Origin: Vicinamibacteria bacterium
Lineage (GTDB): Bacteria > Acidobacteriota > Vicinamibacteria > Vicinamibacterales > JAENWD01
NCBI GenBank assembly: GCA_963739995.1
Contig: CAVUCH010000018.1
Coordinates: 208,922 to 272,921 of the forward strand
DNA length: 64,000 nucleotides
Reading direction: 5' to 3'
Numbering within the stretch: the stretch's first letter is position 1; each line of letters begins with the position of its first letter. The translations under genes were made by a program, and so were the position numbers. Below the pieces are notes generated by a model. The model was not told the DNA's origin. It did not search any database and was given only the letters and a program-made list of their open reading frames with translations. Below, in pieces: positions 5,500 to 52,280 of the stretch.

Positions 5500-5654
5500 C
5501 GCATCCAGTGTTCCGTGTTCATGCTGGGGCTCTGATGCTGCAGGTGTCCGTATCGCAGAACGACCACGGCTGGCGCCGCGTGCGCGCAGACGGGTCGGTC
5601 GACCTCGAGGTGCAGTAGGACCGCGCGCGGGTCTGTGTCGCGCGGCTCACCCCT

Positions 5655-6482
5655 ATGGAATCCACCGGGCCCGGCAGCCGCAGCGTGCCGGTCACGACCT
5701 GCAGCGGCACTACCCGTGACCAGCATCGTGACCTCGTGGCCATTGAAGCCCCCCTCGAGGTGCGCGTGAACGGCGAGCGCTTTGCCGTGATGATGCGCAC
5801 GCCGGGCGCCGATCGGCCGCTCGCGCTCGGATTCCTGTTCAGCGAGGGCGTGATCGACAGCCCCGGCGACGTGGTTGCCGTGAACACATGGCCCGACGAT
5901 CCAGTGCTCGGCAATCGCCTCAACGTGGTGGTCAGCGAGCGCGTAGCGCACGTGCTCGGCGAGCAGGCGGGTGAACGGCGGCACGTTGCGATGACATCCG
6001 CCTGTGGCCTCTGCGGACGCGTTTCCATCGAATCCCTCGCACGAGATGTGGCACCACTCCCGGCTTCGTGGACGATGGATGCTGTGCGTATCGCGAGCAT
6101 CCCGGCCCACCTCCGCGCCGCCCAACCGGTCTTCGACGGAACGGGCGGACTCCACGGGGCCGCTCTCTTCAGGCACGACGGTGAGGTTGCGGCATCGGCC
6201 GAGGACGTCGGCCGCCACAATGCCGTCGACAAGATCGTGGGAACGATGTTCGACGACAATCGTCTGCCGCTGGATGATTTCGTGCTCGCCGTCAGCGGGC
6301 GGGCCTCATTCGAACTGGTCCAGAAGGCGTGCCTCGCCGGGATTCCCATGCTCGTCGCGGTCTCCGCGCCCTCGAGCCTCGCAATCGACCTCGCTGAGGC
6401 TTGCGGCATCACCCTCATCGGCTTCGCCCGAGGCGCCCGCTTCAACATCTACACGCACCCGCAACGCATCGTCCACAGGTGA
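5655..6482 (+). CDS. fdhD: formate dehydrogenase accessory sulfurtransferase FdhD
   Basis: 275-aa ORF with CGLCG (catalytic Cys loop), GGLHGAALF and GRHNAVDKIVG motifs characteristic of FdhD. Confidence 0.85.
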   Translation: MESTGPGSRSVPVTTCSGTTRDQHRDLVAIEAPLEVRVNGERFAVMMRTPGADRPLALGFLFSEGVIDSPGDVVAVNTWPDDPVLGNRLNVVVSERVAHVLGEQAGERRHVAMTSACGLCGRVSIESLARDVAPLPASWTMDAVRIASIPAHLRAAQPVFDGTGGLHGAALFRHDGEVAASAEDVGRHNAVDKIVGTMFDDNRLPLDDFVLAVSGRASFELVQKACLAGIPMLVAVSAPSSLAIDLAEACGITLIGFARGARFNIYTHPQRIVHR

Positions 6483-6612
6483 CAGCGTCAGGGCCCGGAC
6501 GAACCGGGTTACACGGCTCCAGTCTCCCGGGGCCGCAGGCTGCGGCTTCGTCGCCGGGACTTCAGACCCGGCGGACAGTCGGGCGGATCGCCAGGGACTG
6601 TAAGATGGCGGC

Positions 6613-8817: not shown

Positions 8818-8910
8818 GGCCACAAGCCAGGCACGCCCGGCTCTCACCGGTACTTCCCTTGCGTTCGGCTCCTCGTATACCCCAGTGGTGAGCACAAGGA
8901 GCAGATCAGA

Positions 8911-9714
8911 ATGAAGCGAAGCTTCACGACAGCAGCGGCGACCGCTGCGGTATGGGCGCTGATCGCGGTGCCGGGAAGCGCGCAATCCAGCGGTTCGGGG
9001 ACTGCGGGCTCCGGGAGCAGCCAGCAGGGCGGCACGGCCGGATCGGGTGCCACGGATCAGCAGGGCAGCACGCACGGTCCTCAGGTCGGGTCCGGCAGCA
9101 CAGGCCAGTCCGGCAGCGCTCAGTCTGGCACGAGCGACGAGTCGGGCACCGGGCAGAGCGGGACCCCCGGCTCCACGGGCGACAGTGGGAGCACGCAGGG
9201 CTCGGCGGAAAAGGGGTCCTCACAGGACCGCCCGTTCATCGTTGAAGCCGCCGCCGGCGGCCTGGCCGAAGTCGAGCTGGGGCGGCTCGCGTCGCAGAAG
9301 GCGTCGCGCAGTGAGGTGAAGGAATTCGGCCAGATGATGGTGACCGATCATACCAAGGCCAACGATCAGCTCATGAAGATCGCCCGGGAGAAGGGTCTGG
9401 CGGCGCCGCATGTGCTGAAGCCGGAACACGAGGCCGCGCAGGATCATCTGGCGAAGCTGTCTGGCGAAGCCTTCGATCGTGCGTACATGCAGCACATGGT
9501 GAAGGACCACCAGAAGGACGTCGCGCTCTTCCGCAGGCAGTCGACGGGCGCGTCTGATCCCGACGTGAGGCAGTTCGCGAGCGCGACGCTGCCGACCCTG
9601 CAGAAGCACCTCCAGCGCGCGCAGGAGATCGAGCAGATCGTCGGCGGCACCAGCGGGTCAACCCGGGGAACGTCTGGCAGCTCGCCGGGCGCCGGCGCGA
9701 CGCCGCCCCGGTAG
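8911..9714 (+). CDS. DUF4142 domain protein with a long Gly/Ser/Thr/Gln-rich N-terminal linker
   Basis: AAGGAG lies upstream and there is a signal peptide (AAVWALIAVPGSAQS). About 85 aa of low complexity follow, then two DUF4142-like repeats (FGQMMVTDHTKAN, MQHMVKDHQKD). Confidence 0.8.
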   Translation: MKRSFTTAAATAAVWALIAVPGSAQSSGSGTAGSGSSQQGGTAGSGATDQQGSTHGPQVGSGSTGQSGSAQSGTSDESGTGQSGTPGSTGDSGSTQGSAEKGSSQDRPFIVEAAAGGLAEVELGRLASQKASRSEVKEFGQMMVTDHTKANDQLMKIAREKGLAAPHVLKPEHEAAQDHLAKLSGEAFDRAYMQHMVKDHQKDVALFRRQSTGASDPDVRQFASATLPTLQKHLQRAQEIEQIVGGTSGSTRGTSGSSPGAGATPPR

Positions 9715-9741
9715 GACGCGCCAATGCTGCGTTGAGGGAGC

Positions 9742-9776
9742 ACGCCCGTGCGGGTGGGCCAGGGCCGCACGGGCGT
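9742..9776 (+). terminator. stem-loop downstream of the DUF4142 gene (putative intrinsic terminator)
   Basis: Perfect 12-bp stem ACGCCCGTGCGG / CCGCACGGGCGT with an 11-nt loop, followed by TCTTGT. Confidence 0.5.
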
Positions 9777-9850
9777 TCTTGTCGCTCCACTGCGGTGACG
9801 GATCGGCCCCACGCGCAGCGCAACCTGCGCAGAGTCCACCGTGATCTAAG

Positions 9851-10987
9851 ATGAGCGGCATGAGTGACTCACCCGTCCGTGTTTCCCGTCGCGGCTTCCT
9901 TCAACAGGCCGGTGCCGCCGCGCTCGTCACGCACGCGGCCGCCGGAGCCGCGGCCGCACAGCGTGTCCCCGAGCCTCCGGGCCGGAAGCTTGGCTGGGCG
10001 ATCGTCGGGCTCGGCAGCCTCGCGATCAACCAGATTCTTCCCGCGTTTGCGAAGTGTGAGACGTCGAAGGTGACCGCGCTGGTGTCCGGCAGCCCTGAGA
10101 AGGCGCAGAAGCTTGCCCTCAGATACGGGGTGCCGGAGAAGAACATCTACTCCTACTCGAACTACGACGAGATCCGCGACAACCCCGAGATCGACATCGT
10201 CTATGTGGTGCTCCCGAACAGCATGCATGCGGAGTACACCACCCGGGCGGCGCGCGCAGGCAAGCACGTGTTGTGCGAGAAGCCGATGGCGAACACGCCG
10301 GCCGAGTGCCAGCAGATGATCGACGCCTCGCGCCAGGCGCAGCGCAAGCTGATGGTGGCCTACCGCGTACGCTACGAGCCCTACAACCAGGCGCTGATCA
10401 AGGTGGTCCGCGACAAGGAGTTCGGCCCCCTGAAGGTCGTGCTCTCGGATCACGGTTTCAACATCGGCAACCCGAACCAATGGCGGCTGAAGCGCGCCAT
10501 GGCCGGGGGCGGGTCGCTGATGGACATCGGGATCTACTCGCTGAACGCGGCGCGGTACGTCACGGCTGAGGAGCCGGTCGAGGTCAACGCCATGGAGTAC
10601 ACGACGCCGAACGATCCCCGATTCGGGGAGGTCGAGGAGACGATCAACTTCCAGCTGCGCTTCCCGAGCGGCGTGCTCGCGCAATGCAGCTCCAGTTACG
10701 GGGCGCCATTCAACCGCATCCGGGTTGTCGGGACCAACGGATGGGCCGAACTGGAGCCGGCTACGAGCTACGGCGGACTCCGCATGCGGGCCGGCACGAA
10801 CGCGAAGGTGGAAGACCGCACGCACCCGGTGGTGGACCACTTCGCGAGGGAGATGGACCACCTGTCGCAGTGCGTCATCGACAACACGGAGCCGCTGACC
10901 TCCGGTGAGGAGGGCCTCAAGGACCTCACGGTGATGATGGCCATCTACGAGGCGGCAAAGAGCGGGAAGACGATCAAGCTGTCCTAG
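9851..10987 (+). CDS. TAT-exported Gfo/Idh/MocA oxidoreductase (glucose-fructose oxidoreductase-like)
   Basis: 378-aa ORF with twin-arginine leader SRRGFLQQAGAAAL, Rossmann segment WAIVGLGSLAINQILPAF and EKP motif (HVLCEKPMA). Confidence 0.9.
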   Translation: MSGMSDSPVRVSRRGFLQQAGAAALVTHAAAGAAAAQRVPEPPGRKLGWAIVGLGSLAINQILPAFAKCETSKVTALVSGSPEKAQKLALRYGVPEKNIYSYSNYDEIRDNPEIDIVYVVLPNSMHAEYTTRAARAGKHVLCEKPMANTPAECQQMIDASRQAQRKLMVAYRVRYEPYNQALIKVVRDKEFGPLKVVLSDHGFNIGNPNQWRLKRAMAGGGSLMDIGIYSLNAARYVTAEEPVEVNAMEYTTPNDPRFGEVEETINFQLRFPSGVLAQCSSSYGAPFNRIRVVGTNGWAELEPATSYGGLRMRAGTNAKVEDRTHPVVDHFAREMDHLSQCVIDNTEPLTSGEEGLKDLTVMMAIYEAAKSGKTIKLS

Positions 10988-38323: not shown

Positions 38324-39688
38324 GTGAGGCGGCCGATCCGCCACCTCCGCTGGTATATCGGCGGCCTGCTGTTCCTGTCGACGGTCATAAACTACATCGA
38401 CCGTCAGACGCTCAGCGTGCTCGCCCCGTACCTCAAGACGGAGTTCCAGTGGACGAACACTGACTTCGCGTGGGTCCTGATCGGGTTTCGCGTGGCGTAC
38501 GCGGTGGGCCAGACGCTCGCCGGCCGCGCGGTCGACGTGCTCGGCACGCGCCGTGGTCTGAGCTTGTCGGTGGTGTGGTACTCGTGCGCCGCAATGGCCA
38601 CCTCGATGGCGAGCGGGCTCGCGAGCTTCATCGGCTTCCGGTTCGCGCTCGGGCTCGGCGAGGCAGGCAACTGGCCTGGCGCGACGAAGGCGGTGTCGGA
38701 GTGGTTTCCACGCCGCGAAAGCGGGTGGGCGGTCGCGCTATTCGACAGCGGCTCCTCCATTGGCGGGGCGCTCGCGCCGTTCATCGTGCTCACGATCTAC
38801 CACCTGTTCGACAGCTGGCGCCCGGCCTTCCTCGTCACCGGATCGCTCGGCTTCATCTGGGTGCTCGTGTTCCGCTGGGTGTACCGGCGTCCGGAGGAGC
38901 ACCCCTGGATCAGCGACGAAGAGCGGATGCTGATCGTCAGCGGCCGCGAGGAACACGACGCACCGCAGCACCCGACTCACGGCTCCGGGCTCGACGCTCC
39001 AGCCAGCGTCAGGTCGGCAGCTACGCTCCCGGGGGCATCAGATGATTCGCGAGTTCCGCGCCAGCTCCCGTATCGCGTGTTGCTCCGGCTGCCACAGACC
39101 TGGGGTTACGTCCTCTCCAAGACCTTCACCGATCCCGTGTGGTTCTTCATCACCGACTGGTTCGCCATCTACCTGGTGTCGCGCGGGTTCAAGGTCGAGG
39201 AGAGCCTCGTAGGCTTCTGGGTGCCGTTCCTCGCCGCCGATCTGGGCAACTTCTTCGGCGGCGGCTTTTCGAGCTGGCTGATCACGCGCGGCTGGAGCGT
39301 CGGAGCGGCCCGCAAGTGCATCGCCGTGATCGGCGGTCTCGGCATGACGCTGCTGGTCCCCGTGGTGTGGACCTCCTCGTTCTCGGCGATGGTGGCCTGC
39401 TTCGCGATCTCGACGTTCGCCTACGCTGCCTTCTCCACAATCATCCTCAACCTGCCCGCCGACATCTTCCCCACTGGCTCGGTCGCCAGCGTCAGCGGTC
39501 TCGGGGGCACCGGCGCCGGCATCGGCACAATCAGCGCGATCTACTTGACAGGGTGGGTCGCCGACCACTACTCGTTCGCCCCCATCCTGATCGGGGCCAG
39601 CATCGTGCCGCTCGTCGCAATGACCGCGGTGCTGATCCTCATACGGAACACGGCCGCGATGGACCGCGGCGTCCTCAGACGGATCTGA
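38324..39688 (+). CDS. MFS transporter (anion:cation symporter / hexuronate transporter-like)
   Basis: GTG start. The N-terminus [27 protein letters not shown] is typical of ExuT-like ACS-family MFS proteins, and about 12 TM segments are visible. Confidence 0.85.
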
Positions 39689-40238: not shown

Positions 40239-40405
40239 GCTGGTATTCTGGCCCGCCGAACGCGGGCGTGCAACGCCGGGCCGGGTGTGAGCCGGGTGCT
40301 AAGATGGTCGTCCGCGTGTCGCAGCCATCCCCATCATCCCGTCCGCCGGAACCGCCGTTTGCCACAGGGGTCGCCGACGTCGCGGAGCCGCAGCCGGTGG
40401 CTGCG

Positions 40406-41632
40406 ATGCAGGGCGGGCGGGCGCAGCTCTGGCGCGTCGCTGCGGCGCTCACCTACCGCGATTTCCGCGTGCTGTGGCTGGGCGCCTGCACGTCCAGCAT
40501 CGGCACCTGGATGCAGAAGGTGGCTCAGAGCTGGCTCGTGCTCGAGCTGACCGACTCCGCCTGGTATCTCGCGCTCGACAGCTTTGTCGGGGAAGCACCG
40601 CTGCTGCTCTTCACGTTGATCGGCGGCGTGGTCGCCGACCGGCAGGATCGCCGCAAGCTGCTGCTCGTCTCACAGGTCGTGCAGATGTCGTCGGCGTTTG
40701 CCCTGGCCCTGCTCGTGGCGACGGGGCACGTGACGATCTGGTTCATCCTCGGCCTGTCGTTCATGTCGGGATGCGCCCAGGCATTCGGCGGCCCGGCATA
40801 TCAGTCGCTCATCCCGTCGCTCATCAGGACCGAGCACCTGCCGAACGCGGTCGCGCTCAACTCGATCCAGTTCAACATCGCGCGCGTCGTCGGCCCCGTG
40901 CTGGCGGGAACGGCGCTGCATCGCTTGGGGATGGTGTCCTGTTTCACGCTGAACGGCATCTCGTTCCTGGTGGTGATCGGGTCGCTGCTCGCGCTGCACA
41001 TCCAGCACACGCCCCGGGTGGCGGGCAACCGCCGCATGCTCGACGAGCTGAAAGGCGGCATCGTCTTCGTACGCGACGAGCGGCGCCTGCTCGGCCTGAC
41101 CGTGCTGGCGTTCGCGATGACGTTCCTGGCTGTCCCGCTGCTGACGTTTCTGCCCCTCATCGCAAGGAATGTATTCAACGAAGGCGTCGGCCAGTACAGC
41201 GAGATGATGGCGTTCTCGGGTGTTGGCGCCGTGGCGGGCGCGCTGGTGGTCGCGTGGCTTGGCAAGTTTCGTCACATGGGGCTGGCGGCGCTGCTGGTCC
41301 AGTTGATCATCGGCGCGTTGATCGTGGCGTTCGCGCTGACGCGCGTGCTCTGGGTGACGCACCTCCTGCTGCTGGCCACGGGCGCCGCGATGATCGTGTC
41401 GATGTCGCTCGTCACCTCGCTCGCGCAGCTCATCGCGCCCAACGAGATGCGCGGCCGGGTGATGAGCATCTACATGCTCGCGTTCCGCGGCGGGATGCCG
41501 CTCGGCAGTCTGATGAGCGGCAAGATCGCCGATATGACGTCCGCGCCGACTGCCCTGATGATTAACGGAGTTCTGCTCATCTGTGTCGCGGGATACTTCC
41601 TGGTCCGCAGCCATGGCGTGCGGGAAGTCTGA
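40406..41632 (+). CDS. MFS transporter (enterobactin-exporter/MFS_3-like)
   Basis: The segment YRDFRVLWLGACTSSIGTWMQKVAQSWLV is typical of this MFS subgroup. The start is ambiguous (40268, 40304 or 40406). Confidence 0.8.
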   Translation: MQGGRAQLWRVAAALTYRDFRVLWLGACTSSIGTWMQKVAQSWLVLELTDSAWYLALDSFVGEAPLLLFTLIGGVVADRQDRRKLLLVSQVVQMSSAFALALLVATGHVTIWFILGLSFMSGCAQAFGGPAYQSLIPSLIRTEHLPNAVALNSIQFNIARVVGPVLAGTALHRLGMVSCFTLNGISFLVVIGSLLALHIQHTPRVAGNRRMLDELKGGIVFVRDERRLLGLTVLAFAMTFLAVPLLTFLPLIARNVFNEGVGQYSEMMAFSGVGAVAGALVVAWLGKFRHMGLAALLVQLIIGALIVAFALTRVLWVTHLLLLATGAAMIVSMSLVTSLAQLIAPNEMRGRVMSIYMLAFRGGMPLGSLMSGKIADMTSAPTALMINGVLLICVAGYFLVRSHGVREV

Positions 41633-41713: not shown

Positions 41714-42214
41714 CTACGGCTTCTCCGATCCGTCCTGTCGCCGTTTCTCCCACTGCTCGCGGTGCTGCGCACCACGCGCCTCACGTTCCGCACGCAGCGC
41801 CTTCGCCTTCTCCTGCTGCTCCGGGGTGAGCACGTTGTAGACGTCAGCGTGGACCCGTGCACGCAGCACTGCCGCGTCCGCCTCGACCTTCGCCAGCTCC
41901 GCGCTCCGGGCACGCACCGCCCCTTCGTCCACAGGGACGGCCATCACCGCGCCGCTCTGCGCGCGACGGGCCTCCCGCAACCGTTGGAAGATCGCCTGCC
42001 GCTCCGACTTGTGTAACTCCATGATGCGGCGCACGTCCTGCCGCTGGTCGTCCGACAACCCAAGCTGCCCAAGCCCCGGGAACGCGCCACGCATGCCCCG
42101 ATGCTCGCCGCCCACAGGCCCGCGCGGCTGTGCCGATACCGCCGTCCCGAGCCCGAATGCCATACCCAGAGCGGCCACGACCGCCGTCATCTTCGTTTTC
42201 TGAATCGCTTTCAT
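41714..42214 (-). CDS. Spy/CpxP-family periplasmic chaperone-like protein
   Basis: Start at MKAIQKTKMTAVVAALG (signal peptide) preceded by GGAGGA. The protein is helical and charged with two LTxxQ-type motifs (LSDDQ, LTPEQ). The long tracked ORF is an artefact. Confidence 0.7.
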   Translation of the reverse strand: MKAIQKTKMTAVVAALGMAFGLGTAVSAQPRGPVGGEHRGMRGAFPGLGQLGLSDDQRQDVRRIMELHKSERQAIFQRLREARRAQSGAVMAVPVDEGAVRARSAELAKVEADAAVLRARVHADVYNVLTPEQQEKAKALRAEREARGAQHREQWEKRRQDGSEKP

Positions 42215-42391
42215 GTTCTCCTCCATCCGGAAACGCCGGCTTGGTCCGCCACCGCTTCGTTCTGTTCCATTTAACGGGGATCGTGCGGCTCCCCCGTGAC
42301 GGAGTTGTGAAAATTCCATGACAGAACCGGTTGGGGTAACCGGGCACTTTTGTTCATCATCAGAGGCCGCGCCGATCCAAGATACGTCCGC

Positions 42392-43294
42392 ATGCGCGTG
42401 GCCGCAGGCGGAACGCTGCTCCTGATTCTCGCATCCACGATGGCTGCTGCCGACACGCTCGCCGACCGCATCGCCACCCTGACGCATCCGTTCAAAGGCA
42501 GGGTCGCCGTGTACGCGCGGAACCTGACCACCGGCCGGGAGTTCGCGCTCGACGCCGACGCGAGGGTCAGGACCGCCAGCACGATCAAGCTGCCCATCCT
42601 GTGCGCCCTCGAGTCGCTGGTGGCGTCCGGGCGGGTCCGATGGGACGAGCGGATCCGGCTGAAGCCGGAGGACAAGGTGACCGGGTCGGGCGTGCTCGGC
42701 AGCCTCGAAGACGGCACAGACCTCACCGTCCGCAACCTCGCCATCCTGATGATCATCGTCAGCGACAACACCGCGACGAATCTGATCACGGATCGGATCA
42801 CGGCGGATGCCGTCAACGACTATCTCGATACGGTTGGTCTGACCGTGACCCGTTACAACCGGAAGGTCCGTGGCGATGGCGCTCGACTGGCGGAGCCCAG
42901 CGGCTGGAGCAGGGCCGGCACACGCGAAGAGAACCGCAAGTACGGCCTCGGCGTGTCCACCCCACGCGAGATGGTGCGGCTGCTGCAGATGCTCGAGGCG
43001 GGGACGATCGTCAGCCCGGCAGCATCGAAGGATATCCTGGACATTCTCGCGAAGCAGCAGGTGCGCGATGGAATCGCGCGCCGTGCTCCGGACGATCTCC
43101 GCATCGTCAGCAAGAGCGGGGCGCTCGACGCTATGCGAAGTGACGTCGGGATTGTCTACTCGAAGGGCGGGCCCGTTGCGATGGCAATCACGGTAGATGA
43201 GATGCCGGCCACTGACTACTCGCCCGACAACGTGGGCAACGTGCTCATAGGGGAGCTCGCCACGGTGCTGTTGGAGGAATTGGCCGCTCACTGA
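42392..43294 (+). CDS. serine hydrolase, class A beta-lactamase-related
   Basis: A signal peptide is followed by the SxxK motif STIK, an SDN motif (VSDNTATN) and a KSG motif (VSKSGAL), in the canonical order. Confidence 0.8.
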   Translation: MRVAAGGTLLLILASTMAAADTLADRIATLTHPFKGRVAVYARNLTTGREFALDADARVRTASTIKLPILCALESLVASGRVRWDERIRLKPEDKVTGSGVLGSLEDGTDLTVRNLAILMIIVSDNTATNLITDRITADAVNDYLDTVGLTVTRYNRKVRGDGARLAEPSGWSRAGTREENRKYGLGVSTPREMVRLLQMLEAGTIVSPAASKDILDILAKQQVRDGIARRAPDDLRIVSKSGALDAMRSDVGIVYSKGGPVAMAITVDEMPATDYSPDNVGNVLIGELATVLLEELAAH

Positions 43295-43345
43295 CCGGGA
43301 CCCCGCCACACGCGCCCGTTGACTTTACGCGGCGCTCCAGATTAC

Positions 43346-43428: not shown

Positions 43429-44667
43429 ATGAGAACCAGTCGATTGCGTGGGTCCCTGCTGCTCGTTTGCATCCTCTCAGCCACCCCGGCGCTGGCCCAG
43501 GAAACACGACGTGCGGCGGTTGAGGAGCTGCGCGCCGCGCGCGCCGCGACCGTCGCTCCCTACAAACAAGGACGCCTGGAGCGGACGCTCTTCTATATCG
43601 AACAGAACCGCCTGCTTCAACGGGTGACGCGCGAAGAGGGGCTGTACTTGCGGGTCGGGAGCATCCAGCGAGGCGGCGGCTTCGCGTTCGGCGGCGGCTA
43701 CCGCACGCCGTTCGCGGCCGGCCAGCTTGTGTTCAATGCCGACGCGGCGATCACGGTGAAGGGGTACGCGGTGGCCGGGGTGGACATCTCGGCACCCCGT
43801 CTCTTCTCCGAGCGCATGACGCTGACGGGCAGGGGCCTGTATCGATACTTTCCGCAGGAGGACTACTTCGGTATGGGGCCACGCTCGGAAAAGGACGCCC
43901 GCACCACCTACCTACTCGAAGAACGAGAGCTGGCCGGGATTGCGCAGGTGCGCGTGACACCCTGGCTGACGTGGAGCACCAAGGTCGCCCGCCTGGATCC
44001 CCGCGTCGACGACGGCACCGATCGACTCTATCCAACCATCGGCGAGCTGTTCACCGACGTCACCGCGCCGGGTCTCGCGCAACAGCCGGCCTTCTTCGAA
44101 ACAGGGACGATGCTCGAACTCGACACCCGGGACCAGCCCGGCAATCCACGCAGCGGAACGTACGCGTCACTGCTCGGCGCGCGGTTCGGCGATCTCGACG
44201 ATCTCGGGTATGACTTCTCGCGGCTCAGTGCCGAAGTGCAGCACTACGTGCCAATCTTCGACAAAAAGCGGGTGATTGCCGTGCGGGCCGCGCTCAATCG
44301 CTATGAGCCGCGCGGCGGCTCAATCGTCCCGTTCTACTACATCCTCCCGCTTGGCGGGACGGACTCGATTCGCGGCTTCACCAACTTCCGCTTTCGCGAC
44401 CTCAACGCCGTGCTGTTCAACGCCGAATACCGCTGGGAAGCATTTGCCGGCCTCGATATGGCGCTCTTCTACGATGTCGGCAGCGTGGCCCAGCGGTGGA
44501 GCGATCTTGGCTCCGATGGCTGGAAACGATCGTGGGGCATCGGTTTGCGGTTCAACACCTACCGAGCGATCTTCATGCGCACGGAACTGGCTTTCGGGAG
44601 CGGTGAAGGGACCCGGGTGTTCGTTGCGTTCGGAGGGCCGCTACGCCTTCAGCGGTACCTGCGATGA
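43429..44667 (+). CDS. Omp85/BamA-family outer membrane barrel protein without an obvious POTRA array
   Basis: Signal peptide LLLVCILSATPALAQE. The C-terminal motifs LGGTDSIRGF, NAEYRWE and GIGLRFNT are typical of surface-antigen (D15) barrels. Confidence 0.75.
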   Translation: MRTSRLRGSLLLVCILSATPALAQETRRAAVEELRAARAATVAPYKQGRLERTLFYIEQNRLLQRVTREEGLYLRVGSIQRGGGFAFGGGYRTPFAAGQLVFNADAAITVKGYAVAGVDISAPRLFSERMTLTGRGLYRYFPQEDYFGMGPRSEKDARTTYLLEERELAGIAQVRVTPWLTWSTKVARLDPRVDDGTDRLYPTIGELFTDVTAPGLAQQPAFFETGTMLELDTRDQPGNPRSGTYASLLGARFGDLDDLGYDFSRLSAEVQHYVPIFDKKRVIAVRAALNRYEPRGGSIVPFYYILPLGGTDSIRGFTNFRFRDLNAVLFNAEYRWEAFAGLDMALFYDVGSVAQRWSDLGSDGWKRSWGIGLRFNTYRAIFMRTELAFGSGEGTRVFVAFGGPLRLQRYLR

Positions 44668-46313
44668 CCCGAGGCTTTCTCCTCATACCGTTCCTGGCCG
44701 GCGCTGTGATTGCCGGTTCCGCCGGCCTGGTGGCGAGTCCGCCCGCGAAGTTCTACCGGGACGACCCGCTGCTCGCCGATCCGGAGACCCAGGACGCTTC
44801 CCATGTCAGCCCATGGAAGGTGAACGAGTCGTACGATTTCATCGAGAACTCGTTTCTCGATGCCGGCGAGCGCCGCGACGTTCGTGCCTCGAACGTCAAC
44901 ACGCTGGACGAAGTGCCGGACTCGAGCTGGTTCACGAACCGCCTCGGCACGCGTGTCATGACCGCCGACGAGGTCGAGACCGGTCCGGTGGCCGGTACGG
45001 GCCCTGAGCCTGGCCCGTGGACGATCGTCGAAGGCAAGAACGAAGGGATCACGCCCGGGCTGACGATTGCCGACCACCGCGGGGACGTGTACTTCGTGAA
45101 GTTCGACCCGCCGTCGAATCCGGAGATGGCGACCGGCGCCGAAGTGATCTCGACGCAGTTCTTTCACGCCCTCGGCTATCACGTTCCGGAGAACTACATC
45201 GCGACGCTCCGTTCCGAAGACCTGCGGATCGGCGACGCCGCGACCATCAAGGGGACCGACGGCCGGAAGCGCCCCTTCGTAAGGTCAGACCTCGATGGGG
45301 TCCTCGCGAAGGCGGCCCGCAACGGCGATGGCACGTACCGCGTGGTGGCGAGCAAGGCGCTCTCCGGCACACCGCTCGGCCCGTTCCGTTATTACGGCAC
45401 CCGGCCGGACGACCCGAACGACATCTACGATCACGAGCACCGGCGGGAGCTTCGCGGCCTCCGCGTGTTCGCGGCCTGGCTGAATCACGACGACTCGCGC
45501 AGCGTGAACACGCTCGACACCCTCGTCGAGCACGAGGGTCGGCGCATCGTCCGGCACCACCTCATCGACTTCGCCTCCACGCTCGGCAGCGGAAGCACGG
45601 CGGCCCAGAAGCCCCGCGCGGGAAACGAGTACATCTGGGAAGCCCGCCCGACGTTCATCACGATGCTCACCTTCGGGCTCTACGTCCGCCCGTGGATAAA
45701 AGTGCAGTATCCCGACCTCCCGTCGATCGGACGCATCGAGGCGGCCTACTTCGCCCCGGAGCGCTGGAAGCCGGAGTACCCCAATAGCGCCTTCGACAAC
45801 ATGCGGGCGGACGATGCCTTCTGGGCGGCACGCTTGCTGACGGCCTTCGACGACGACCTGATCCGCGCAGCGGTGAAGAGCGCCCAGTTCAGCGATCCGG
45901 AAGCGGACGCCTACCTGGCGCAGACGCTGATCACCCGTAAAGACAAGATCCTGCAGGCGTGGCTGAACGGTGTACTGCCGCTCCACGACTTCGCCCTTTC
46001 GCGCGAGGGCACGCTGACGTTCACCAATGTCGCAGCCGCGGCCGTAGCTGCCCAGATCCGCGAGTACCGGATCCGGTGGTTCGCCTTCGACAATCAGGCG
46101 GGCACCACGACGCCGCTGGGCGACGAGGTCTCGGTTACCGACACGCGGGCCGCGGCGCCTCCCCCGTTGCTCGCCGAGCCGCCGGAGTTCGTGATGATCG
46201 AGTTGCGCGGTCTCCACGACCGGCACCCGGGGTGGGCGTCCCCGACGAAGGTCTACTTTCGGCGCGAGGAAGCGAAAGGCTGGCAGCTTGTGGGCGTCGA
46301 GCGGCAGCCCTAA
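44664..46313 (+). CDS. exported hypothetical protein with protein-kinase-like motif set
   Basis: The ATG overlaps the upstream stop (ATGA). It has an N-terminal hydrophobic leader, then motifs in kinase order: YFVKF, PEMATGAE, NHDDSRSVN (HxDxxxxN) and IDFAS (DFG-like). Confidence 0.75.
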   Translation: MTRGFLLIPFLAGAVIAGSAGLVASPPAKFYRDDPLLADPETQDASHVSPWKVNESYDFIENSFLDAGERRDVRASNVNTLDEVPDSSWFTNRLGTRVMTADEVETGPVAGTGPEPGPWTIVEGKNEGITPGLTIADHRGDVYFVKFDPPSNPEMATGAEVISTQFFHALGYHVPENYIATLRSEDLRIGDAATIKGTDGRKRPFVRSDLDGVLAKAARNGDGTYRVVASKALSGTPLGPFRYYGTRPDDPNDIYDHEHRRELRGLRVFAAWLNHDDSRSVNTLDTLVEHEGRRIVRHHLIDFASTLGSGSTAAQKPRAGNEYIWEARPTFITMLTFGLYVRPWIKVQYPDLPSIGRIEAAYFAPERWKPEYPNSAFDNMRADDAFWAARLLTAFDDDLIRAAVKSAQFSDPEADAYLAQTLITRKDKILQAWLNGVLPLHDFALSREGTLTFTNVAAAAVAAQIREYRIRWFAFDNQAGTTTPLGDEVSVTDTRAAAPPPLLAEPPEFVMIELRGLHDRHPGWASPTKVYFRREEAKGWQLVGVERQP

Positions 46314-48153: not shown

Positions 48154-48867
48154 ATGTCGACGGACGGACCGACGCCTCCGCGCGCGCTGCGGCTGCTCAT
48201 CGTTGAGGACGATGAGGACATCGCGCACCTACTGGCGCACAGCGTCCGAAAGGCCGGGTTCGAGGCTGCGGTGATGCTCTCGGGTGCGGGCGTGCTTGCG
48301 CGGCTGCGCGAGAGCCCGCCCGATCTGCTCCTGCTGGATGTCATGCTCCCGGGGCTGGACGGCAGGGACATCTGCCGTGCGGTGCGGAAAGACCCACGCA
48401 CGCAGTCGATTCCCGTGATCATGATCACCGCGCGAGCCGAGGAGACCGACCGCGTCGCGGGCCTCGAGCTCGGCGCCGACGATTACATCACCAAGCCATT
48501 CAGCCCTCGCGAGGTCGTCGCCCGGGTCCGCGCCGTGCTGCGCCGCGCCGCCGCAGCACCCAAGGCATCCCACTCTCTCACCTTCGGCGATCTGCAGGTC
48601 GACGCCGAACGACACGTGGTCACCGCGGGCGGTCACGAGGTGCGATTGACCGCGAAAGAGTTCCTGCTGCTCAGGTACTTCCTGGAGCATCGCGGGCGCG
48701 TGCTGTCCCGGGACCTCCTGCTGTCGGATGTGTGGGGCTATCGCTACACAGGCGGCACGCGCACCGTCGACGTCCACGTCCGTCGATTGCGGGAAAAGCT
48801 GCCCGTCATGGCCGATGCCATCGTCACGGTGCCGCAATTCGGATACAAGCTCCGGGAGACCCCGTGA
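48154..48867 (+). CDS. phoB: OmpR/PhoB-family response regulator
   Basis: The receiver domain has [23 protein letters not shown] and DDYITKPF. The winged-helix output has RVLSRDLLL and [12 protein letters not shown]. The phoB symbol is assigned only from context next to the pst genes. Confidence 0.85.
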
Positions 48868-50645
48868 GGCGGGGGAGCTTCCGGACCAAGATGTTCCTGG
48901 CGGCGTCGGGGGCCGGCATCCTCACGGCGCTCGTCACGGCCAGTCTGCTGTTCTGGTCGCTGCGGCACCAGATGCACGACCGAATCGAGGAGCGCGTGCT
49001 GCTCGAGGCGCGGCTCGTGGCCGATCAGCTGGAGCGCGATCGGTCGCCGGCACGGCCCGGCGGCTACGAGGCGGAGGCCATCCGGCTTGCGGCGCTCGTC
49101 GAAGCGCGCGTGACGTTCATCGCGGCGGATGGCCGCGTGCTCGGCGATTCGTGGGTGAACACCGATCGAATCAGCACGCTCGAGGAGCACGCGCATCGGC
49201 CCGAGATCGTGGAAGCGCGCGCACGCGGTGTGGGCCACGCGCGCAGGGTGAGCGCCACCGTGGACACCGACATGCTCTACACGGCGGTGACCGTCCGCGA
49301 CCCGGACATCGCGTTCGTGCGCCTCGCCGTTCCGGCCGCCAGCGTGCGGCAGCTGCTGCGGCAGGTCATTCCGCTCACTCTTCTCGCGATGGCACTGGGT
49401 ACGGGTGTGGCGCTCGCGCTGGCCTGGGCATTTTCCCTGCCGTTGTCGCGCCGTGTGGCGGCAATCGCCACGGTCGCCGATCGCTACGCTGCTGGCGACT
49501 TCACGCGTCCGCCGATCGATTACGGCGTCGACGAGCTCGGTCGCGTGGCGCGGTCGCTCGACGCGGTGGTCGTCGAGCTCGGCGTGCGGGTAGCGGATCT
49601 GGCGCGCAACCGCGCGCGCATGGAAGCAATCCTCGCGGGCATGGTGGAAGGGGTGCTGGTGCTCGACGAGGATGGCCGCGTGCGCCTCGTCAACGAGGCG
49701 GCACGGCGGATGCTCGGCATCACCGACGAGGGGATCGGCCGTCGCTACACCGGTTCGATCCGCCACCCCGACATCGTGGCGCAGATCGGGCGCGCGTTGC
49801 GCGGCGAGGAGCCTTCCGGCGTGGAGCTGACGTTCGGTGTGGATTCGTCGCGGGTGCTCATCGCGCGGGCGGCCCCGACGCGGGGCCCGGCCGGCGCGGG
49901 CGGCGTCCTCGTCCTCCATGACATCACCGACCTGAGACACGCGGATCAGGTGCGACGCGATTTCGTCGGCAACGTCTCCCACGAACTGCGCACGCCGCTC
50001 ACCGCGATCCGCGGCTACGTCGAGACGCTCCTCGAGGAGAGCCCGGAAGGTCAGACGCACGAGTTCCTGCAGGTCATCTTCCGCCACACGGCGCGCATGG
50101 AGCGGCTGGTGGGAGATCTGCTGCGTCTGGCGAGACTCGACGCAGGGCAGGAGGTTACCGGTCTCGCGACGGTTCATCTCGGGCCTGTCGTGCAGGGTGT
50201 CGTGGACGAACTGTCGCCGCTCATCGAGTCACGGCGGGCAGATCTCCGCGTGCGCATCGAGGATGAAGGCCGCGCTCTGGAGACGGACCCCGCCTGCGTG
50301 CACGACATCCTGCGCAACCTGCTCGAGAACGCGGTCAGCTACTCGCCGGAGGGGGGCACTGTATCGCTTACCGCAGTCGTGTCCGGCGAGCGGGCGACTC
50401 TCGAGGTGGCGGATTCAGGGCCCGGGATTCCGCCCGCCGACCTGCAGCGGGTGTTCGAGCGTTTCTATCGGGTAGACAAGTCGCGCGTGAGGAACCCGGG
50501 AGGCACGGGCATCGGACTCGCAATCGTGAGGAACCTCGTGGAGATGCTCGGGGGCACCGTGGTCGCCCGCAACGCGGACAAGGGCGGCGCCGTCTTTACT
50601 GTCAGCTTGCCGGCACGTGCCGCACCGCGTGCCGCCGCAGGCTGA
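48864..50645 (+). CDS. phoR: sensor histidine kinase, PhoR-like
   Basis: The GTG start overlaps the regulator stop (GTGA). It has two TM segments, HAMP and PAS-like regions, the H-box [18 protein letters not shown] and an HATPase domain ([17 protein letters not shown]). Confidence 0.85.
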
Positions 50646-50648
50646 CCC

Positions 50649-51656
50649 TCACCGCCACCCGAAGAGCCACACCGCCTGGTAGGTGACTGCGGCCACGAGC
50701 GCGGCGGCCGGAATCGTCAGGAGCCAGGCCCAGACGATTCGTCGCGCCACACCCCACCGCACGGCCGACAGCCGTCGCGTTGCGCCGACCCCGATGATCG
50801 CACCCGTGATCGTGTGAGTCGTGCTGATGCCGACCCCCAGGTAGGTCGCGATGCCGATCGCGAACGCCGCCCCGGTTTCGGCGGCGAAGCCGCTCACGGG
50901 CTGCAGGCGTGTGATCTTCGAGCCCATCGTGTGGATGATGCGCCAGCCGCCCGAGAGCGTGCCAAGACCGATTGCGGCGTGCGCCGCGAGCACCACCCAG
51001 ACCGGGATGTAGAACGTATCGATGTAGTTCGCGGAGTACAGGACACCGGCGATGATCCCCATGGTCTTCTGGGCGTCATTGGCGCCGTGCATGAGGCTGA
51101 ACCCGGCAGCGGAGACCAGCTGCAGCCGCCGGAACCAGCCGTCCACGCGGCTGGGCGGCACCCAGCGGAAGCACCAGAACATCAGCGTCATCAGCGCCAG
51201 CCCCACGGTAAGGCCGATCATCGGCGCCACGACGATGAAGACGATCGTCTTGATCCAGCCAGCGGGAATGATCACTTGGAATCCAGCTTTCGCGATCGCG
51301 GCGCCCGCATACCCGCCAAACAGCGCGTGCGACGAGCTCGTCGGCAGCCCGAAGAACCACGTGATCAGATTCCAGGTGATCGCGCCACAGAGACCAGCGA
51401 AGATGACTGCCAGCGTCACGTACTCGAGGTGCACCATGCCGCTGCCGACAGTCTTCGCGACGGCGGTGCCAAACGTGAACGCGGCGATGAAATTGAAGAA
51501 GGCCGCCCACATGACGGCCTTGCCGGGGGAGAGGACCCGGGTCGAGACAACCGTGGCGATGGAGTTCGCCGCGTCGTGGAACCCGTTGATGTAGTCGAAG
51601 ATGAGCGCGAGCGTGATGAGCGCGACGACAACGAGTAGCCCGACCGGGACGTCCAT
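50649..51656 (-). CDS. inorganic phosphate transporter, PiT family
   Basis: 335-aa polytopic protein with the PiT signature FDYINGFHDAANSIAT and its repeat SLMHGANDAQKTMG. Confidence 0.9.
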   Translation of the reverse strand: MDVPVGLLVVVALITLALIFDYINGFHDAANSIATVVSTRVLSPGKAVMWAAFFNFIAAFTFGTAVAKTVGSGMVHLEYVTLAVIFAGLCGAITWNLITWFFGLPTSSSHALFGGYAGAAIAKAGFQVIIPAGWIKTIVFIVVAPMIGLTVGLALMTLMFWCFRWVPPSRVDGWFRRLQLVSAAGFSLMHGANDAQKTMGIIAGVLYSANYIDTFYIPVWVVLAAHAAIGLGTLSGGWRIIHTMGSKITRLQPVSGFAAETGAAFAIGIATYLGVGISTTHTITGAIIGVGATRRLSAVRWGVARRIVWAWLLTIPAAALVAAVTYQAVWLFGWR

Positions 51657-51662
51657 GCCGGG

Positions 51663-52280
51663 CTATCCGTTCTTGACGACGACGCCCTCGAAGACGTTCG
51701 CGACGTCCTCGCAGCGATCGGTGGCGTCTTCGAGCAAGTCGAGCACTTCCTTCCACTTCATGACGGTCAGCGCGTCCGTCTCCCCTTCGAAGAGCCGGCG
51801 CAGCGCCTCGTCGTGGATGTCGTCGGCCTCGTTCTCGAGCCGGTTGATCTCCACAGTGACCACGTGGACACCGGTGCGCTTTTCCAGGGCTGCCGCTCCC
51901 TGCCGCACCTGCTCGGTGGCCCTGGCGATGATCCGCGCCAGTTCGCGGGCACCAAAGCGCACATCCGGGATGCGGTAGCGGCGGATTACCGCCGCCGACG
52001 CGTCGATGGCGTCCATCACGTCGTCGAGCGACCGCGCGAGTCCGTGAATGTCTTCGCGGTCGAGTGGCGTCACGAACGTGCGGTTCAGCCGCTGGAAGAC
52101 CTCGTGCGTGATGGTGTCGCAGCGATGCTCGATGTCCTTTATGCCGGCGGCACTCTCCCACCGGGGCGGAACGGTCGAGAGCATCTCCTCGAGCAGCCGC
52201 GCACCGACCATCAGCTCATCAGCGAGCGCGATGAAGTCTGCGAAGAACTTTTCCTCGCGGGGTATGAGTCGGAATCTCAC
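51663..52280 (-). CDS. DUF47 family protein (PhoU-like, PiT-associated)
   Basis: 205-aa helical protein with the segments KFFADFIALADE and ENEADDIHDEALRRLF. Pairing with a downstream PiT gene is canonical. Confidence 0.85.
   Translation of the reverse strand: MRFRLIPREEKFFADFIALADELMVGARLLEEMLSTVPPRWESAAGIKDIEHRCDTITHEVFQRLNRTFVTPLDREDIHGLARSLDDVMDAIDASAAVIRRYRIPDVRFGARELARIIARATEQVRQGAAALEKRTGVHVVTVEINRLENEADDIHDEALRRLFEGETDALTVMKWKEVLDLLEDATDRCEDVANVFEGVVVKNG

Follow-up and report, generated by a model that had tools for sequence, protein, structure and literature searches.

Kinases of the HipA type act as toxins in the cytoplasm and come with antitoxins, and the eukaryotic Fam20 kinases depend on lumenal ATP that is delivered by transporters. 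NTT/TLC transporters are regarded as hallmarks of energy parasitism. Omp85 proteins can have partners; lipoprotein subunits accompany BamA and TamB accompanies TamA, which offers a model for accessory proteins. Omp85 barrels without POTRA domains have no assigned function (PMC4104836), and in Leptospira the genes of such noNterm Omp85s have genes for exported lipoproteins immediately downstream (PMC11358297). Genes for NTT-HEAT proteins with a cNBD gene after them have been described from free-living bacteria, where their role is open (Major et al. 2017, PMC5381601). Here we report a previously undescribed pair of genes, one for an Omp85 barrel and one for an exported partner with a predicted kinase fold, and its operon link with NTT transporters, which is new here.

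A coupled gene pair

The window is a 64,000 nt stretch of a Vicinamibacteria bacterium (GCA_963739995.1, contig CAVUCH010000018.1, positions 208,922-272,921, forward strand). The organism is a soil bacterium. The pair and its junction are as follows.

43429..44667, + strand: gene for a 412-aa protein, a predicted POTRA-less ('noNterm') Omp85-family outer-membrane barrel (open reading frame, Pfam PF01103)
44664..46313, + strand: gene for a 549-aa exported protein with a predicted protein-kinase-like (PKL) fold (open reading frame, AF2 model, Foldseek)
44664..44667, + strand: ATGA stop/start overlap that joins the Omp85 gene and the partner gene

Both open reading frames begin with ATG, and they and their four-nucleotide overlap were confirmed as the earlier note had described them. 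Close spacing is general: at nearly all other loci the start codon of the partner gene lies about -41 to +20 nt from the Omp85 stop, and overlaps of 4 nt or 1 nt are frequent. No promoter or terminator signals above shuffle expectation were found around the pair, and its base composition is that of its flanks.

A predicted Omp85 barrel without POTRA domains

The product of the first gene divides into three parts.

43429..43497, + strand: predicted signal peptide, residues 1-23, ending ...ATPALA before QETR (read from the sequence)
43498..43653, + strand: conserved pre-barrel segment of ~50 residues, QETRRAAVEELRAARA...PYKQGRLER (orthologue consensus)
43654..44643, + strand: predicted beta-barrel, about residues 76-405, with IRGF, EYR and YDVG motifs (invariant columns, PDB alignments)

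Orthologues share a hydrophobic leader that ends in A-x-A and is followed by Q-[DE]-T-R-A-E. The pre-barrel segment (consensus AQxTRAExLxxxRAEKAxxLxPYxPGxLER) is probably helical, and at ~50 residues it is too short for a POTRA domain to be possible there. The sole Pfam match of the product is to Omp85, PF01103 (residues 227-377, E 2.6e-15, 57 bits with the cutoff at 24); the Pfam search returned no POTRA. Among NCBIfam models, NF047779 (Omp85_fam) scored 98 bits, under its cutoff of 200, and the BamA and TamA models scored well under theirs. A profile built from 42 orthologues retrieved only BamA and TamA barrels from the PDB, down to E 7e-10, with the alignment limited to the barrel; the barrel register is extrapolated from profile positions 152-317, which align with E. 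coli BamA 497-665. Invariant in the 42 orthologues are R315 of IRGF (the loop-6 motif), R321, E333, Y334 and R335 (the EYR motif, 333-335), F347, G370 and G372, and D349 and G351 of YDVG are kept at ≥90%. The earlier note had read this product as a signal peptide and a C-terminal Omp85/D15-like barrel with no array of POTRA domains, and every part of that reading holds, with the motifs that it quoted falling on conserved columns. The gene 1 product is a BamA-type, POTRA-less Omp85 barrel as judged from sequence profiles.

An exported partner with a predicted kinase-like fold

The layout of the partner combines sequence features with an AlphaFold model (pLDDT 95.9, pTM 0.93).

44664..44735, + strand: predicted Sec-type signal peptide, residues 1-24, MTRGFLLIPFLAGAVIAGSAGLVA before SPP (sequence)
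44736..45017, + strand: N-terminal extension, residues 25-118, with DDP...DPE and NVNxxDEVPDSSWFTNR motifs and conserved columns W89 and R93
45018..45971, + strand: predicted kinase-like core, residues 119-436 (DSSP of the model, Foldseek)
45981..46304, + strand: predicted C-terminal beta-sandwich, Ig/FN3-like, residues 440-547 (eight strands in the model)

A leader with a basic n-region and a hydrophobic h-region is present in 117 of 118 full-length homologues, which agrees with the hydrophobic leader and export claimed earlier for the window protein. Since the latter has no Cys at the signal-peptide site, it should not be a lipoprotein; a lipobox Cys is found in at least 16 of the 118, distant members included. 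The partner is thus predicted to be soluble in the window organism and a lipoprotein in many relatives. Searches with the partner against Pfam (E up to 1), NCBIfam and PDB sequences gave no match, as expected from the claim that it fits no named family; by these searches the family is undescribed and is absent from Pfam and NCBIfam.

The N-terminal extension is modelled at pLDDT >95. In the core, DSSP places N-lobe strands at 119-147, alphaC at 155-170 and alphaE at 261-273, followed by the catalytic loop, a beta hairpin at 283-300 and a helical C-lobe. Foldseek against the PDB returned almost exclusively protein-kinase-like folds: the best match was H. pylori CtkA (prob 1.00, TMt 0.49), the lowest E-value was that of Fam20C (4kqb, 4e-4), and further matches were Fam20A/B, Rio2, 7vkb, HipT and VPS34. 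A viral library yielded PI3K/PI4K, CotH and Ser/Thr kinases, and matches of these kinds also came from an earlier, shallower model (pLDDT 71). The likeness to solved kinases is moderate, with a best TMt of 0.49 and no E-value better than 4e-4; this and the negative hhalign comparison with HipA count against the phosphotransfer reading put forward below. Weak Pfam matches that recur among 61 family members point the same way as the model, namely HipA_2 in 14 and HipA_C in 6 (any other Pfam family in at most two); the HipA_2 match is colinear with the N-lobe (member P0266), although the best HipA match (E 3e-4) reaches 13.9 bits where Pfam requires 27. For the C-terminal domain, Foldseek gave a monobody and an FN3 domain (3n1g_C, TMt 0.40) as sub-matches, and the domain shows weak HMM similarity to Ig constant domains. 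We read the core as a bilobal protein-kinase-like (PKL) fold, as modelled.

Residues of the candidate active site were counted in 171 partner homologues.

45036..45059, + strand: Gly-rich-loop-like motif K125-N-E-G128-I-T-P-G132, between strands 119-125 and 132-136
45099..45101, + strand: K146, at the beta3-Lys position, end of strand 142-147 (conservation and model)
45141..45143, + strand: E160, at the alphaC-Glu position, helix 155-170 (conservation and model)
45402..45455, + strand: invariant block R247-x2-D250-x2-D253-x3-H257-x2-R260-R261-x2-R264, before and within alphaE
45486..45509, + strand: catalytic-loop motif H275-D-D277-S-R-S-V-N282, loop between helix 266-273 and strand 283-290
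45567..45572, + strand: D302-F303, DFG-like metal-binding Asp, directly after strand 293-300

K125 is kept in 169/171 and G128 in all 171. Position 146 is Lys in 152 and Glu in 19, and position 160 is Glu in 146 and Asp in 7. The catalytic loop retains H275 (143/171), D277 (159, with Glu in a further 11) and N282 (171/171), and the DFG-like motif retains D302 (170/171) and F303 (157/171). Each residue of the R247-R264 block, which is specific to this family, is kept in 165-171 of the 171; the block may form a phosphate, metal or substrate site. Because K146 and E160 are less conserved than this Arg/Asp/His block, the chemistry may differ from that of ordinary kinases. By residue conservation, the predicted nucleotide/metal site made up of K125/G128, K146, E160, D277, N282 and D302 appears intact.

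These results bear out the central proposal of the earlier note, that the 549-aa product carries four kinase-type motifs in the expected order: all four are present on the expected structural elements, the model retrieves kinase-like folds (CtkA at prob 1.00, Fam20C at E 4e-4), and K146, E160, H275, D277, N282 and D302 are kept across the homologue set. Of the three outcomes that the note had named as refuting it (no kinase-like fold, unconserved motif residues, no synteny of the two genes), none occurred. One detail changes. The conserved catalytic Asp of the HDD motif is its second, D277; the first, D276, is Asp in only 86/171 and is not conserved.

Distribution and operon context

Partner homologues number more than 7,000 in one search and form 4,529 clusters at 50% identity in another. 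The pair occurs in Acidobacteriota, Latescibacterota, Gemmatimonadota and Zixibacteria. These phyla are abundant in soil and sediment. An Omp85 gene is adjacent to the partner gene in 154 of 154 informative loci, so the synteny looked for across genomes is there, and the pairing is well beyond chance. The partner retains ~60% identity across an order. The neighbours of the pair vary, with no immunity-like gene conserved among them.

Among divergent lineages, which include Latescibacterota, the pair opens an operon in the order Omp85, partner, sometimes an exported Metallophos protein, NTT, NTT-HEAT and a cNMP-binding protein. After de-duplication, 15 divergent loci were informative, and 14 of them have a TLC gene within 10 kb of the pair. 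The order is repeated in L101, L104-106, L159-162, L164, L169 and L174, and the operon is also found in L085, L087, L068 and L089. In L161 it reads by Pfam as Omp85, partner, TLC, TLC+HEAT, cNMP_binding, and a TLC+HEAT gene followed by a cNMP-binding gene recurs in L161, L089, L101, L106, L159, L160, L169 and others. The Metallophos gene is part of a minority of operons only; these neighbours carry a signal peptide or lipobox. Many of the operon-bearing contigs come from sediments and soils. In the window's own clade an NTT is near the pair in only 5 of 58 informative loci, and no NTT/TLC, Metallophos or cNMP-binding gene lies within the 64-kb window. Any ATP supply of this kind in the window organism is therefore an extrapolation.

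A putative extracytoplasmic phosphotransfer module

The reading that we favour, and hold to be slightly better than even, is that the pair is an obligate, co-translated envelope module for extracytoplasmic phosphotransfer, anchored at the outer membrane. In the outer membrane, the gene 1 product would form an Omp85 barrel of the 16-strand type, preceded only by its ~50-residue conserved N-terminal segment. The gene 2 product would be exported by Sec and bring a kinase-fold core, nearest to HipA/CtkA and Fam20 types, together with its Ig-like domain. It may dock on the barrel or be held by it, either at the cell surface or facing the periplasm, and there it would use a nucleotide as the donor of phosphate, or of another nucleotide-derived group, for an envelope substrate. 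In the divergent lineages, the operon's two NTT/TLC-family transporters, one fused to HEAT repeats, would sit in the inner membrane, and these exchangers may send ATP into the periplasm and take back ADP. The whole would match, in bacteria, the lumenal kinases of eukaryotic secretory organelles, which receive their ATP through ATP/ADP antiporters. The NTT operon hints that ATP is supplied to an extracytoplasmic kinase in some bacteria, and the link is easier to reconcile with an enzyme that works in the periplasm or at the outer membrane than with one that is released from the cell. To our knowledge, the periplasm is commonly taken to contain no ATP, which counts against this proposal. So does the direction of transport: all characterised NTTs import nucleotides into the cytoplasm (PMC5381601).

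A fuller version, possible but on the whole doubtful, makes the pair the outer arm of an extracytoplasmic phosphorylation system with NTT ATP/ADP antiport, reversal by Metallophos and a cNMP-gated supply. The barrel-held enzyme would phosphorylate an envelope protein, lipid or glycan, the exported Metallophos phosphatase would remove the mark, and the cytoplasmic cNMP-binding protein with HEAT repeats would gate the ATP supply. If this were true, it would provide a role for the NTTs of free-living bacteria and for the noNterm Omp85 class, and the periplasm could be energised with ATP.

Rather unlikely is a system resembling two-partner secretion, in which the barrel carries the kinase-fold protein over the outer membrane. 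Like HipA-type kinases and secreted CtkA, the protein would be an effector or toxin, active on the cell surface or in other cells, and it would use the ATP of its target cell. The direct coupling of a barrel gene to the gene of a Sec-exported cargo would suit it, as would the fact that CtkA, the solved structure that comes nearest, is a kinase that is secreted or translocated (PMC5536186), and roles of this sort have been speculated on for the Leptospira noNterm Omp85s and their adjacent exported lipoproteins (PMC11358297). However, POTRA domains for TpsA-type cargo are absent, the barrel matches PF01103 instead of the ShlB type, and a TPS domain is lacking in the partner. The variable neighbours include no conserved immunity-like gene, the identity kept across the order is unlike that of fast-evolving toxins, and an operon with inner-membrane NTTs and an exported phosphatase suits an enzyme within the envelope.

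Nucleotide scavenging is a little less probable again. Here the barrel would be the entry, the kinase fold would serve mainly to bind or process external nucleotides in the periplasm, Metallophos would trim them and the NTTs would import them. Metallophos enzymes include periplasmic nucleotidases, which counts for this reading, but we know of no Omp85 barrel that acts as a solute channel, which counts against it. The import by characterised NTTs noted above (PMC5381601) and the sediment and soil origin of many operon-bearing contigs also favour it. Pure binding, however, leaves the near-invariant catalytic-loop Asp/Asn and DFG-like Asp unexplained, the window's clade retains the pair without nearby NTTs, and most of the operons have no Metallophos gene.

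Least probable is a non-catalytic accessory. The partner would then be a pseudokinase-like plug or scaffold by which a specialised Omp85 insertase is regulated or assisted, and the NTT linkage would be regulatory or coincidental. The obligate, tight coupling, the lipoprotein forms in many lineages, reminiscent of the BAM lipoproteins, the replacement of K146 by Glu in some homologues and the proposal that noNterm Omp85s act in membrane-protein biogenesis (PMC4104836) would fit it, but D277, N282, D302 and the Gly-rich loop are 93-100% conserved in several phyla, which is unusual for pseudokinases, and the NTT association in the divergent clade is too strong for coincidence.

A widespread exported family with a predicted kinase fold and apparently intact catalytic residues challenges the view of an ATP-free periplasm or implies unusual chemistry. 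The predicted obligate enzyme partner is a handle on POTRA-less Omp85 barrels, and the operon in which NTT-HEAT-cNBD genes stand together with those for the barrel and the exported kinase-fold partner offers a concrete hypothesis for the NTTs of free-living bacteria.

Comparison with described systems

Type Vb systems (FhaC/FHA, ShlB/ShlA) likewise couple an Omp85-superfamily barrel gene to the gene of a Sec-exported partner. They differ in both components: the barrel here is BamA-type and POTRA-less, whereas ShlB/FhaC-type barrels match PF03865 and have two POTRA domains, and the partner lacks a TPS domain and is modelled as a compact, globular enzyme where those systems have a long beta-helix. 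On these grounds a two-partner secretion system was rejected, and the two-partner secretion logic that the earlier note had seen in the pair is not supported.

HipA/CtkA kinases (HipA_C PF07804, HipA_2 PF20613; CtkA 3akj/3akk, HipT 7ab3) are the best structural match of the partner and share with it a D-x4-N catalytic loop and a metal-binding Asp ~20-25 residues on, after a beta hairpin. Unlike them, the partner is Sec-exported or a lipoprotein, has an Omp85 neighbour and no adjacent HTH antitoxin, and bears a ~95-residue N-terminal extension, the R/D/H block and a C-terminal Ig-like domain. No family member exceeds the Pfam threshold, the window protein has no HipA match, and hhalign gave no match with E. 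coli HipA (prob 0.3). Membership of the HipA family was rejected on the sub-threshold profile matches, this hhalign result, the lack of a HipB-type antitoxin and the signal peptide.

The noNterm Omp85s (Heinz & Lithgow 2014, PMC4104836; Leptospira, PMC11358297) have a barrel without POTRA domains, like gene 1, but neither a kinase-fold partner nor an NTT linkage is reported in those studies. The NTT-HEAT/cNBD operons correspond to the downstream half of the divergent operon (TLC, TLC+HEAT, cNMP_binding), and Omp85 or kinase-fold genes are not mentioned in the available part of their account (PMC5381601). The window locus is unlike these operons in that the transporters are absent.

Fam20C/Fam20B and the bacterial CotH proteins resemble the partner at the level of the fold only (TM-scores 0.26-0.40), and neither Fam20C PF06702 nor CotH PF08757 matched the window protein or the 61 members at E up to 10. 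The organisms and membrane systems of Fam20 are entirely different from those of the partner. Nevertheless, Fam20 and CotH are kinase-fold enzymes outside the cytosol, as proposed here for the partner, and the transporter that supplies Fam20 with lumenal ATP finds a parallel in the NTT genes of the divergent-lineage operon.

The gene pair in the window

The earlier note described an Omp85-type barrel gene coupled to a gene for an exported protein with kinase-like motifs. Both ORFs are recovered on the same strand and have the ATGA at 44664-44667 in common, and all of the peptide motifs quoted in that note are found in the two products. A scan finds no sigma-70-like promoter or intrinsic terminator around the pair above shuffle expectation. 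The G+C content of the pair (64–66%) is the same as that of the flanks, and the pair thus looks native.

Features at and around the gene pair (window positions)
41714-42160, minus strand: LTXXQ/Metal_resist (CpxP/Spy-like) periplasmic protein, upstream of the Omp85 gene
42350-43294, plus strand: class-A beta-lactamase-like protein (PF13354, E 5e-62), next to the Omp85 gene on its upstream side
43429-44667, plus strand: Omp85, 412 aa
44664-46313, plus strand: partner, 549 aa
46420-47115, downstream of the pair: polytopic membrane protein, 231 aa, His-rich (HGLGADH, HTHTHGDSMHTHWHVH), no Pfam match
48190-52280, 2–6 kb downstream of the pair: phosphate-homeostasis-like cluster

A long minus-strand ORF at 41714-43309 is rejected as a spurious extension across the beta-lactamase gene.

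A POTRA-less Omp85 barrel

Pfam assigns the 412-aa product to Omp85 (PF01103, E 2.6e-15), and the 423-position NCBIfam model of the ‘Omp85 family’ subfamily also matches it, with a score under the model cutoff; the NCBIfam models for BamA, TamA and TamL score far under their cutoffs. A profile of 42 orthologues from related loci (A4) matches PDB entries only over the barrel part of BamA and TamA structures, with profile positions 152-317 aligning with Escherichia coli BamA 497-665 and positions 257-377 with TamA 404-530. Extrapolation from these alignments puts the probable start of the barrel at about residue 75–80. The signal peptide ends in ATPALA, followed by QETR, which leaves a pre-barrel segment of ~50 residues that is conserved among the orthologues (consensus AQxTRAE…R…K…PY.PG.LER). 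A POTRA domain would not fit into a segment of this length, and POTRA profiles give no match to the protein, in agreement with the earlier reading. Conserved barrel motifs across the 42 orthologues include the loop-6 IRGF, in which R315 is invariant, an invariant EYR at 333-335, and YDVG. By these sequence features the product is assigned to the Omp85 superfamily, ‘noNterm’ class, a class without known function (PMC4104836; PMC11358297).

The orthologues usually end at F405, which is conserved in at least 90%. In the window, residues 406-412 (44644-44664) run ~7 residues past this usual barrel end (GPLRLQRYLR) and into the overlap with the partner start codon; the same extension is present in L004, a locus with an 88% identical relative.

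The partner is a predicted kinase-fold protein

As the earlier note had it, the partner belongs to no named family. Searches of Pfam and NCBIfam give nothing meaningful, and searches of PDB sequences, whether by phmmer or with profiles of 35 or 61 sequences, give no significant match; the chance-level matches (pyruvate carboxylase, antibody light chains and an armadillo design) are dismissed. The family is large, with more than 7,000 homologues in a 90%-clustered collection and 4,529 clusters at 50% identity (E ≤ 1e-3), 1,484 of which have E ≤ 1e-30. Among the matches listed, all are named ‘hypothetical protein’ and none carries a Pfam domain. Long ‘fusion’ homologues (P0138, P0226, P0249, P0187 and others) have no informative Pfam domains.

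Two cases hint at a fusion of Omp85 and partner and are set aside, as they look like frameshifted assemblies. In L056 a single open frame (4663-7611) matches the HMMs of both proteins, and in P0221 (826 aa) the partner domain is preceded by a weak Omp85 match. Assembly errors are suspected in L056 because the Omp85 there is also split over two frames; for both cases the alternative to a frameshifted assembly is a natural fusion of barrel and enzyme.

A first AF2 model of the partner, built from 35 close homologues, has a pLDDT of 71 and a poor catalytic region, and its Foldseek matches are suggestive only. It is replaced by a second model from 126 diverse homologues with a pLDDT of 95.9 and pTM of 0.93, for which Foldseek matches in the PDB are almost exclusively protein-kinase-like folds, as the kinase-like reading of the motifs had anticipated. 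The leading matches are Helicobacter pylori CtkA (3akj/3akk; prob 1.00, TMt 0.49) and Fam20C (4kqb; E 4e-4, prob 0.98), followed by weaker matches to Fam20A, hydra Fam20, Rio2, the bacterial kinase 7vkb, HipT and VPS34. The viral library BFVD also yields PI3K/PI4K, CotH and Ser/Thr kinases. The strongest BFVD matches, with E values down to 1.9e-7, are large multi-domain phage proteins of 970–1,340 aa whose names, where given, are ADP-ribosyltransferase or portal protein, and these may contain a related kinase-like domain. Outside the kinase-like core, the model has an N-terminal extension of ~95 residues with the motif DEVPDSSWFTNR and a C-terminal beta-sandwich of ~108 residues that resembles Ig/FN3 domains.

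In a lax Pfam scan of 61 representatives taken singly, the sole recurring families are HipA_2 (14/61, best E 3e-4) and HipA_C (6/61); the HipA_2 match in one of these proteins, P0266, is colinear over the N-lobe. An hhalign comparison of the 126-sequence profile with E. coli HipA alone returns a prob of 0.3 and no residue-level equivalence. Taken together, the fold matches, the weak HipA_2 and HipA_C similarity and the negative hhalign result place the family outside HipA, as a branch of its own that is new to the kinase-like superfamily.

The four motifs proposed earlier fall at the elements expected in a kinase fold according to the secondary structure of the model, and their conservation is assessed in an HMM-guided alignment of 171 unique homologues.

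Partner residues: place in the model and conservation among 171 homologues
K125: 169/171
G128: 171/171
K146: end of strand 142-147 (beta3); 152/171 Lys, 19 Glu
E160: within helix 155-170 (alphaC); 146/171 Glu, 7 Asp
H275-x-D277-x4-N282: loop joining helix 266-273 (alphaE) to strand 283-290
H275: 143/171
D276: 86/171, unconserved
D277: 159/171 Asp, 11 Glu
N282: 171/171
D302-F303: directly after strand 293-300; D302 170/171

The HxDxxxxN catalytic-loop pattern is therefore kept, but the conserved Asp of ‘HDD’ is D277 rather than D276. By sequence, K125-x-x-G128-x-T-P-G is a putative Gly-rich-loop-like motif. A family-specific block, R-x2-D-x2-D-x3-H-x2-RR-x2-R (residues 247-264, window 45402-45455), exceeds K146 and E160, the Lys and Glu of classical kinases, in conservation: R247, D250, D253, H257, R260, R261 and R264, and likewise D384, W387 and R425, are each kept in 165–171 of the 171 sequences. 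We infer that this R/D/H block is a phosphate, metal or substrate site; to our knowledge, it has no counterpart in HipA, CtkA or Fam20. Both the predicted structure and the motif conservation thus point to membership in the kinase-like fold superfamily.

Export of the partner, also part of the earlier claim, holds across the family. A basic n-region and a hydrophobic h-region precede the conserved core in 117 of 118 full-length members; many members have A-x-A sites, and at least 16/118 have a lipobox Cys (more by eye). The window protein starts MTRGFLLIPFLAGAVIAGSAGLVA, followed by SPP, with Cys absent. These leaders predict that the family is extracytoplasmic throughout and that many members are lipoproteins.

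Conservation of the gene pair

A total of 173 related loci were examined, comprising 80 species-representative loci, 13 fetched from chosen representatives and 80 from a metagenome scan. The species-representative loci, obtained through alignment A1, are by record title from Acidobacteriota or Vicinamibacterales, bar a few evidently mislabelled MAGs. Because the A1 search reached only Acidobacteriota, this first synteny sample is biased; it was widened by the metagenome scan (A5), for which the query was a divergent, lipoprotein-type subgroup of the partner. Using HMMs for both proteins, an Omp85 gene adjoins the partner gene in every locus with enough flanking sequence, so the pair is syntenic well beyond the window. 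Omp85 lies upstream in 150 cases and downstream in 4, and 20 further contigs are too short to judge; the downstream arrangement is seen in L092, L096 and L168. The junction is almost always tight, with the partner start from about −41 to +20 nt from the Omp85 stop and frequent 4- or 1-nt overlaps. Omp85 diverges faster than the partner, at 32–44% identity where the partner retains 49–62%. In several loci (L092 at 6542-10019, L095, L099, L110, L111 and L122) the partner gene, or the pair as a whole, is duplicated in tandem. The L092 partner copies are 82% identical and both are lipoproteins.

Gene neighborhoods

The window falls in a Vicinamibacterales subgroup in which the pair is usually alone or followed by a GT87 glycosyltransferase, which we take to be of the polyprenol-phosphate-sugar type, and an M1 peptidase. 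GT87 lies downstream of the partner in 26 Vicinamibacterial loci (L001-L003 and 23 others) and the M1 aminopeptidase in 20; the window has neither at this position. A gene for a TLC-family nucleotide transporter (NTT) is nearby in only 5 of 58 informative loci of the Vicinamibacterales set, and no homologue of TLC, Metallophos or the cNMP-binding protein (cNBD) is present within the 64-kb window. Two MFS genes in the window (38324-39688 and 40268-41632) are rejected as NTT equivalents, as they are MFS_1 and MFS_3 rather than TLC.

The other window neighbors appear unrelated to the module. By eye, the 231-aa His-rich membrane protein looks like a metal transporter. In the phosphate-homeostasis-like cluster, the genes of a two-component system (OmpR-type response regulator and HAMP/PAS histidine kinase) accompany those for a PiT phosphate transporter (PHO4, E 2e-92) and a PhoU_div/DUF47 protein. 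Conservation of this cluster does not extend to the related loci inspected, and chance may explain why it lies close to a putative module for phosphotransfer.

In divergent lineages, further genes continue after the pair on its strand and with short gaps: in order, a Metallophos phosphoesterase in some operons, exported and bearing a signal peptide or lipobox, a TLC/NTT-family transporter (~450 aa), a TLC/NTT-HEAT fusion (~920 aa) and a cNMP-binding protein (~150 aa). Examples are L101, L104-106, L159-162, L164, L169 and L174. Each operon gene is confirmed by Pfam in L161, and likewise in L085, L087, L068 and L089. Once near-duplicates are removed, 15 divergent loci show 4 kb or more on each side, and 14 of them have a TLC gene within 10 kb. 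Where members of this clade carry a name, it is Latescibacterota, Handelsmanbacteria or Gemmatimonadota; a Zixibacteria member is also seen.

Individual loci carry further genes. A response regulator and a GAF/PAS histidine kinase follow the full operon in L161 (16350-18864), and a Hanks-type Ser/Thr kinase gene lies on the opposite strand between the NTT and Metallophos genes in L087 (1722-3362, minus strand). In L090 (4383-6522), where a cluster mate of the partner bears the label Zixibacteria, the genes after the pair encode an exported protein of 425 aa, weakly RelA_SpoT-like (E 8.5e-4), and then a PAP2 lipid phosphatase, by sequence probably further nucleotide- or phosphate-handling envelope proteins.

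A candidate envelope phosphotransfer system

By computation, the universal unit of these loci is a two-gene module: an Omp85 barrel that lacks POTRA domains, and an exported protein of predicted kinase fold with conserved nucleotide- and metal-site residues. Statements on its activity, location and transport direction are hypotheses drawn from sequence and modelled structure. The barrel and the partner may associate as a complex at the outer membrane, where the partner would transfer phosphate, in a nucleotide-dependent manner, onto an envelope substrate; the exported Metallophos protein could act as the opposing phosphatase. Less likely readings, each of which explains fewer of the observations, are a partner that serves as a non-catalytic accessory to an Omp85 insertase and a nucleotide-scavenging route. 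The likeness to two-partner secretion drawn in the earlier note is not supported, as the defining features of such systems were checked and are not found in the pair; secretion of a kinase effector in a similar manner is a less likely reading that again explains fewer observations. Identity with BamA, TamA or TpsB, with the HipA family or with Fam20/CotH is likewise rejected on the absence of their defining features.

No description of an Omp85 and kinase-fold pair, of a periplasmic kinase or of an NTT operon that includes outer-membrane components was found in the literature, and we found no described counterpart of the Omp85-partner(-NTT) system as a whole. Part of the operon is familiar: an NTT-HEAT gene followed by a cNBD gene is reported to occur widely among free-living bacteria without a known role (Major et al. 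2017, PMC5381601), and that arrangement is identical to the one in the divergent operons. None of the papers found that use the term NTT-HEAT gives it a function.

For a phosphate-transferring partner, the NTT operon suggests how an exported kinase-fold enzyme might be fed. NTTs are exchangers; given high cytoplasmic ATP and a release of ADP in the periplasm, they could work in the ATP-out/ADP-in direction, by which they would supply the partner. Lumenal kinases such as Fam20C depend on ATP/ADP antiporters in eukaryotic organelles, and the proposed supply of the partner by NTTs resembles that arrangement.
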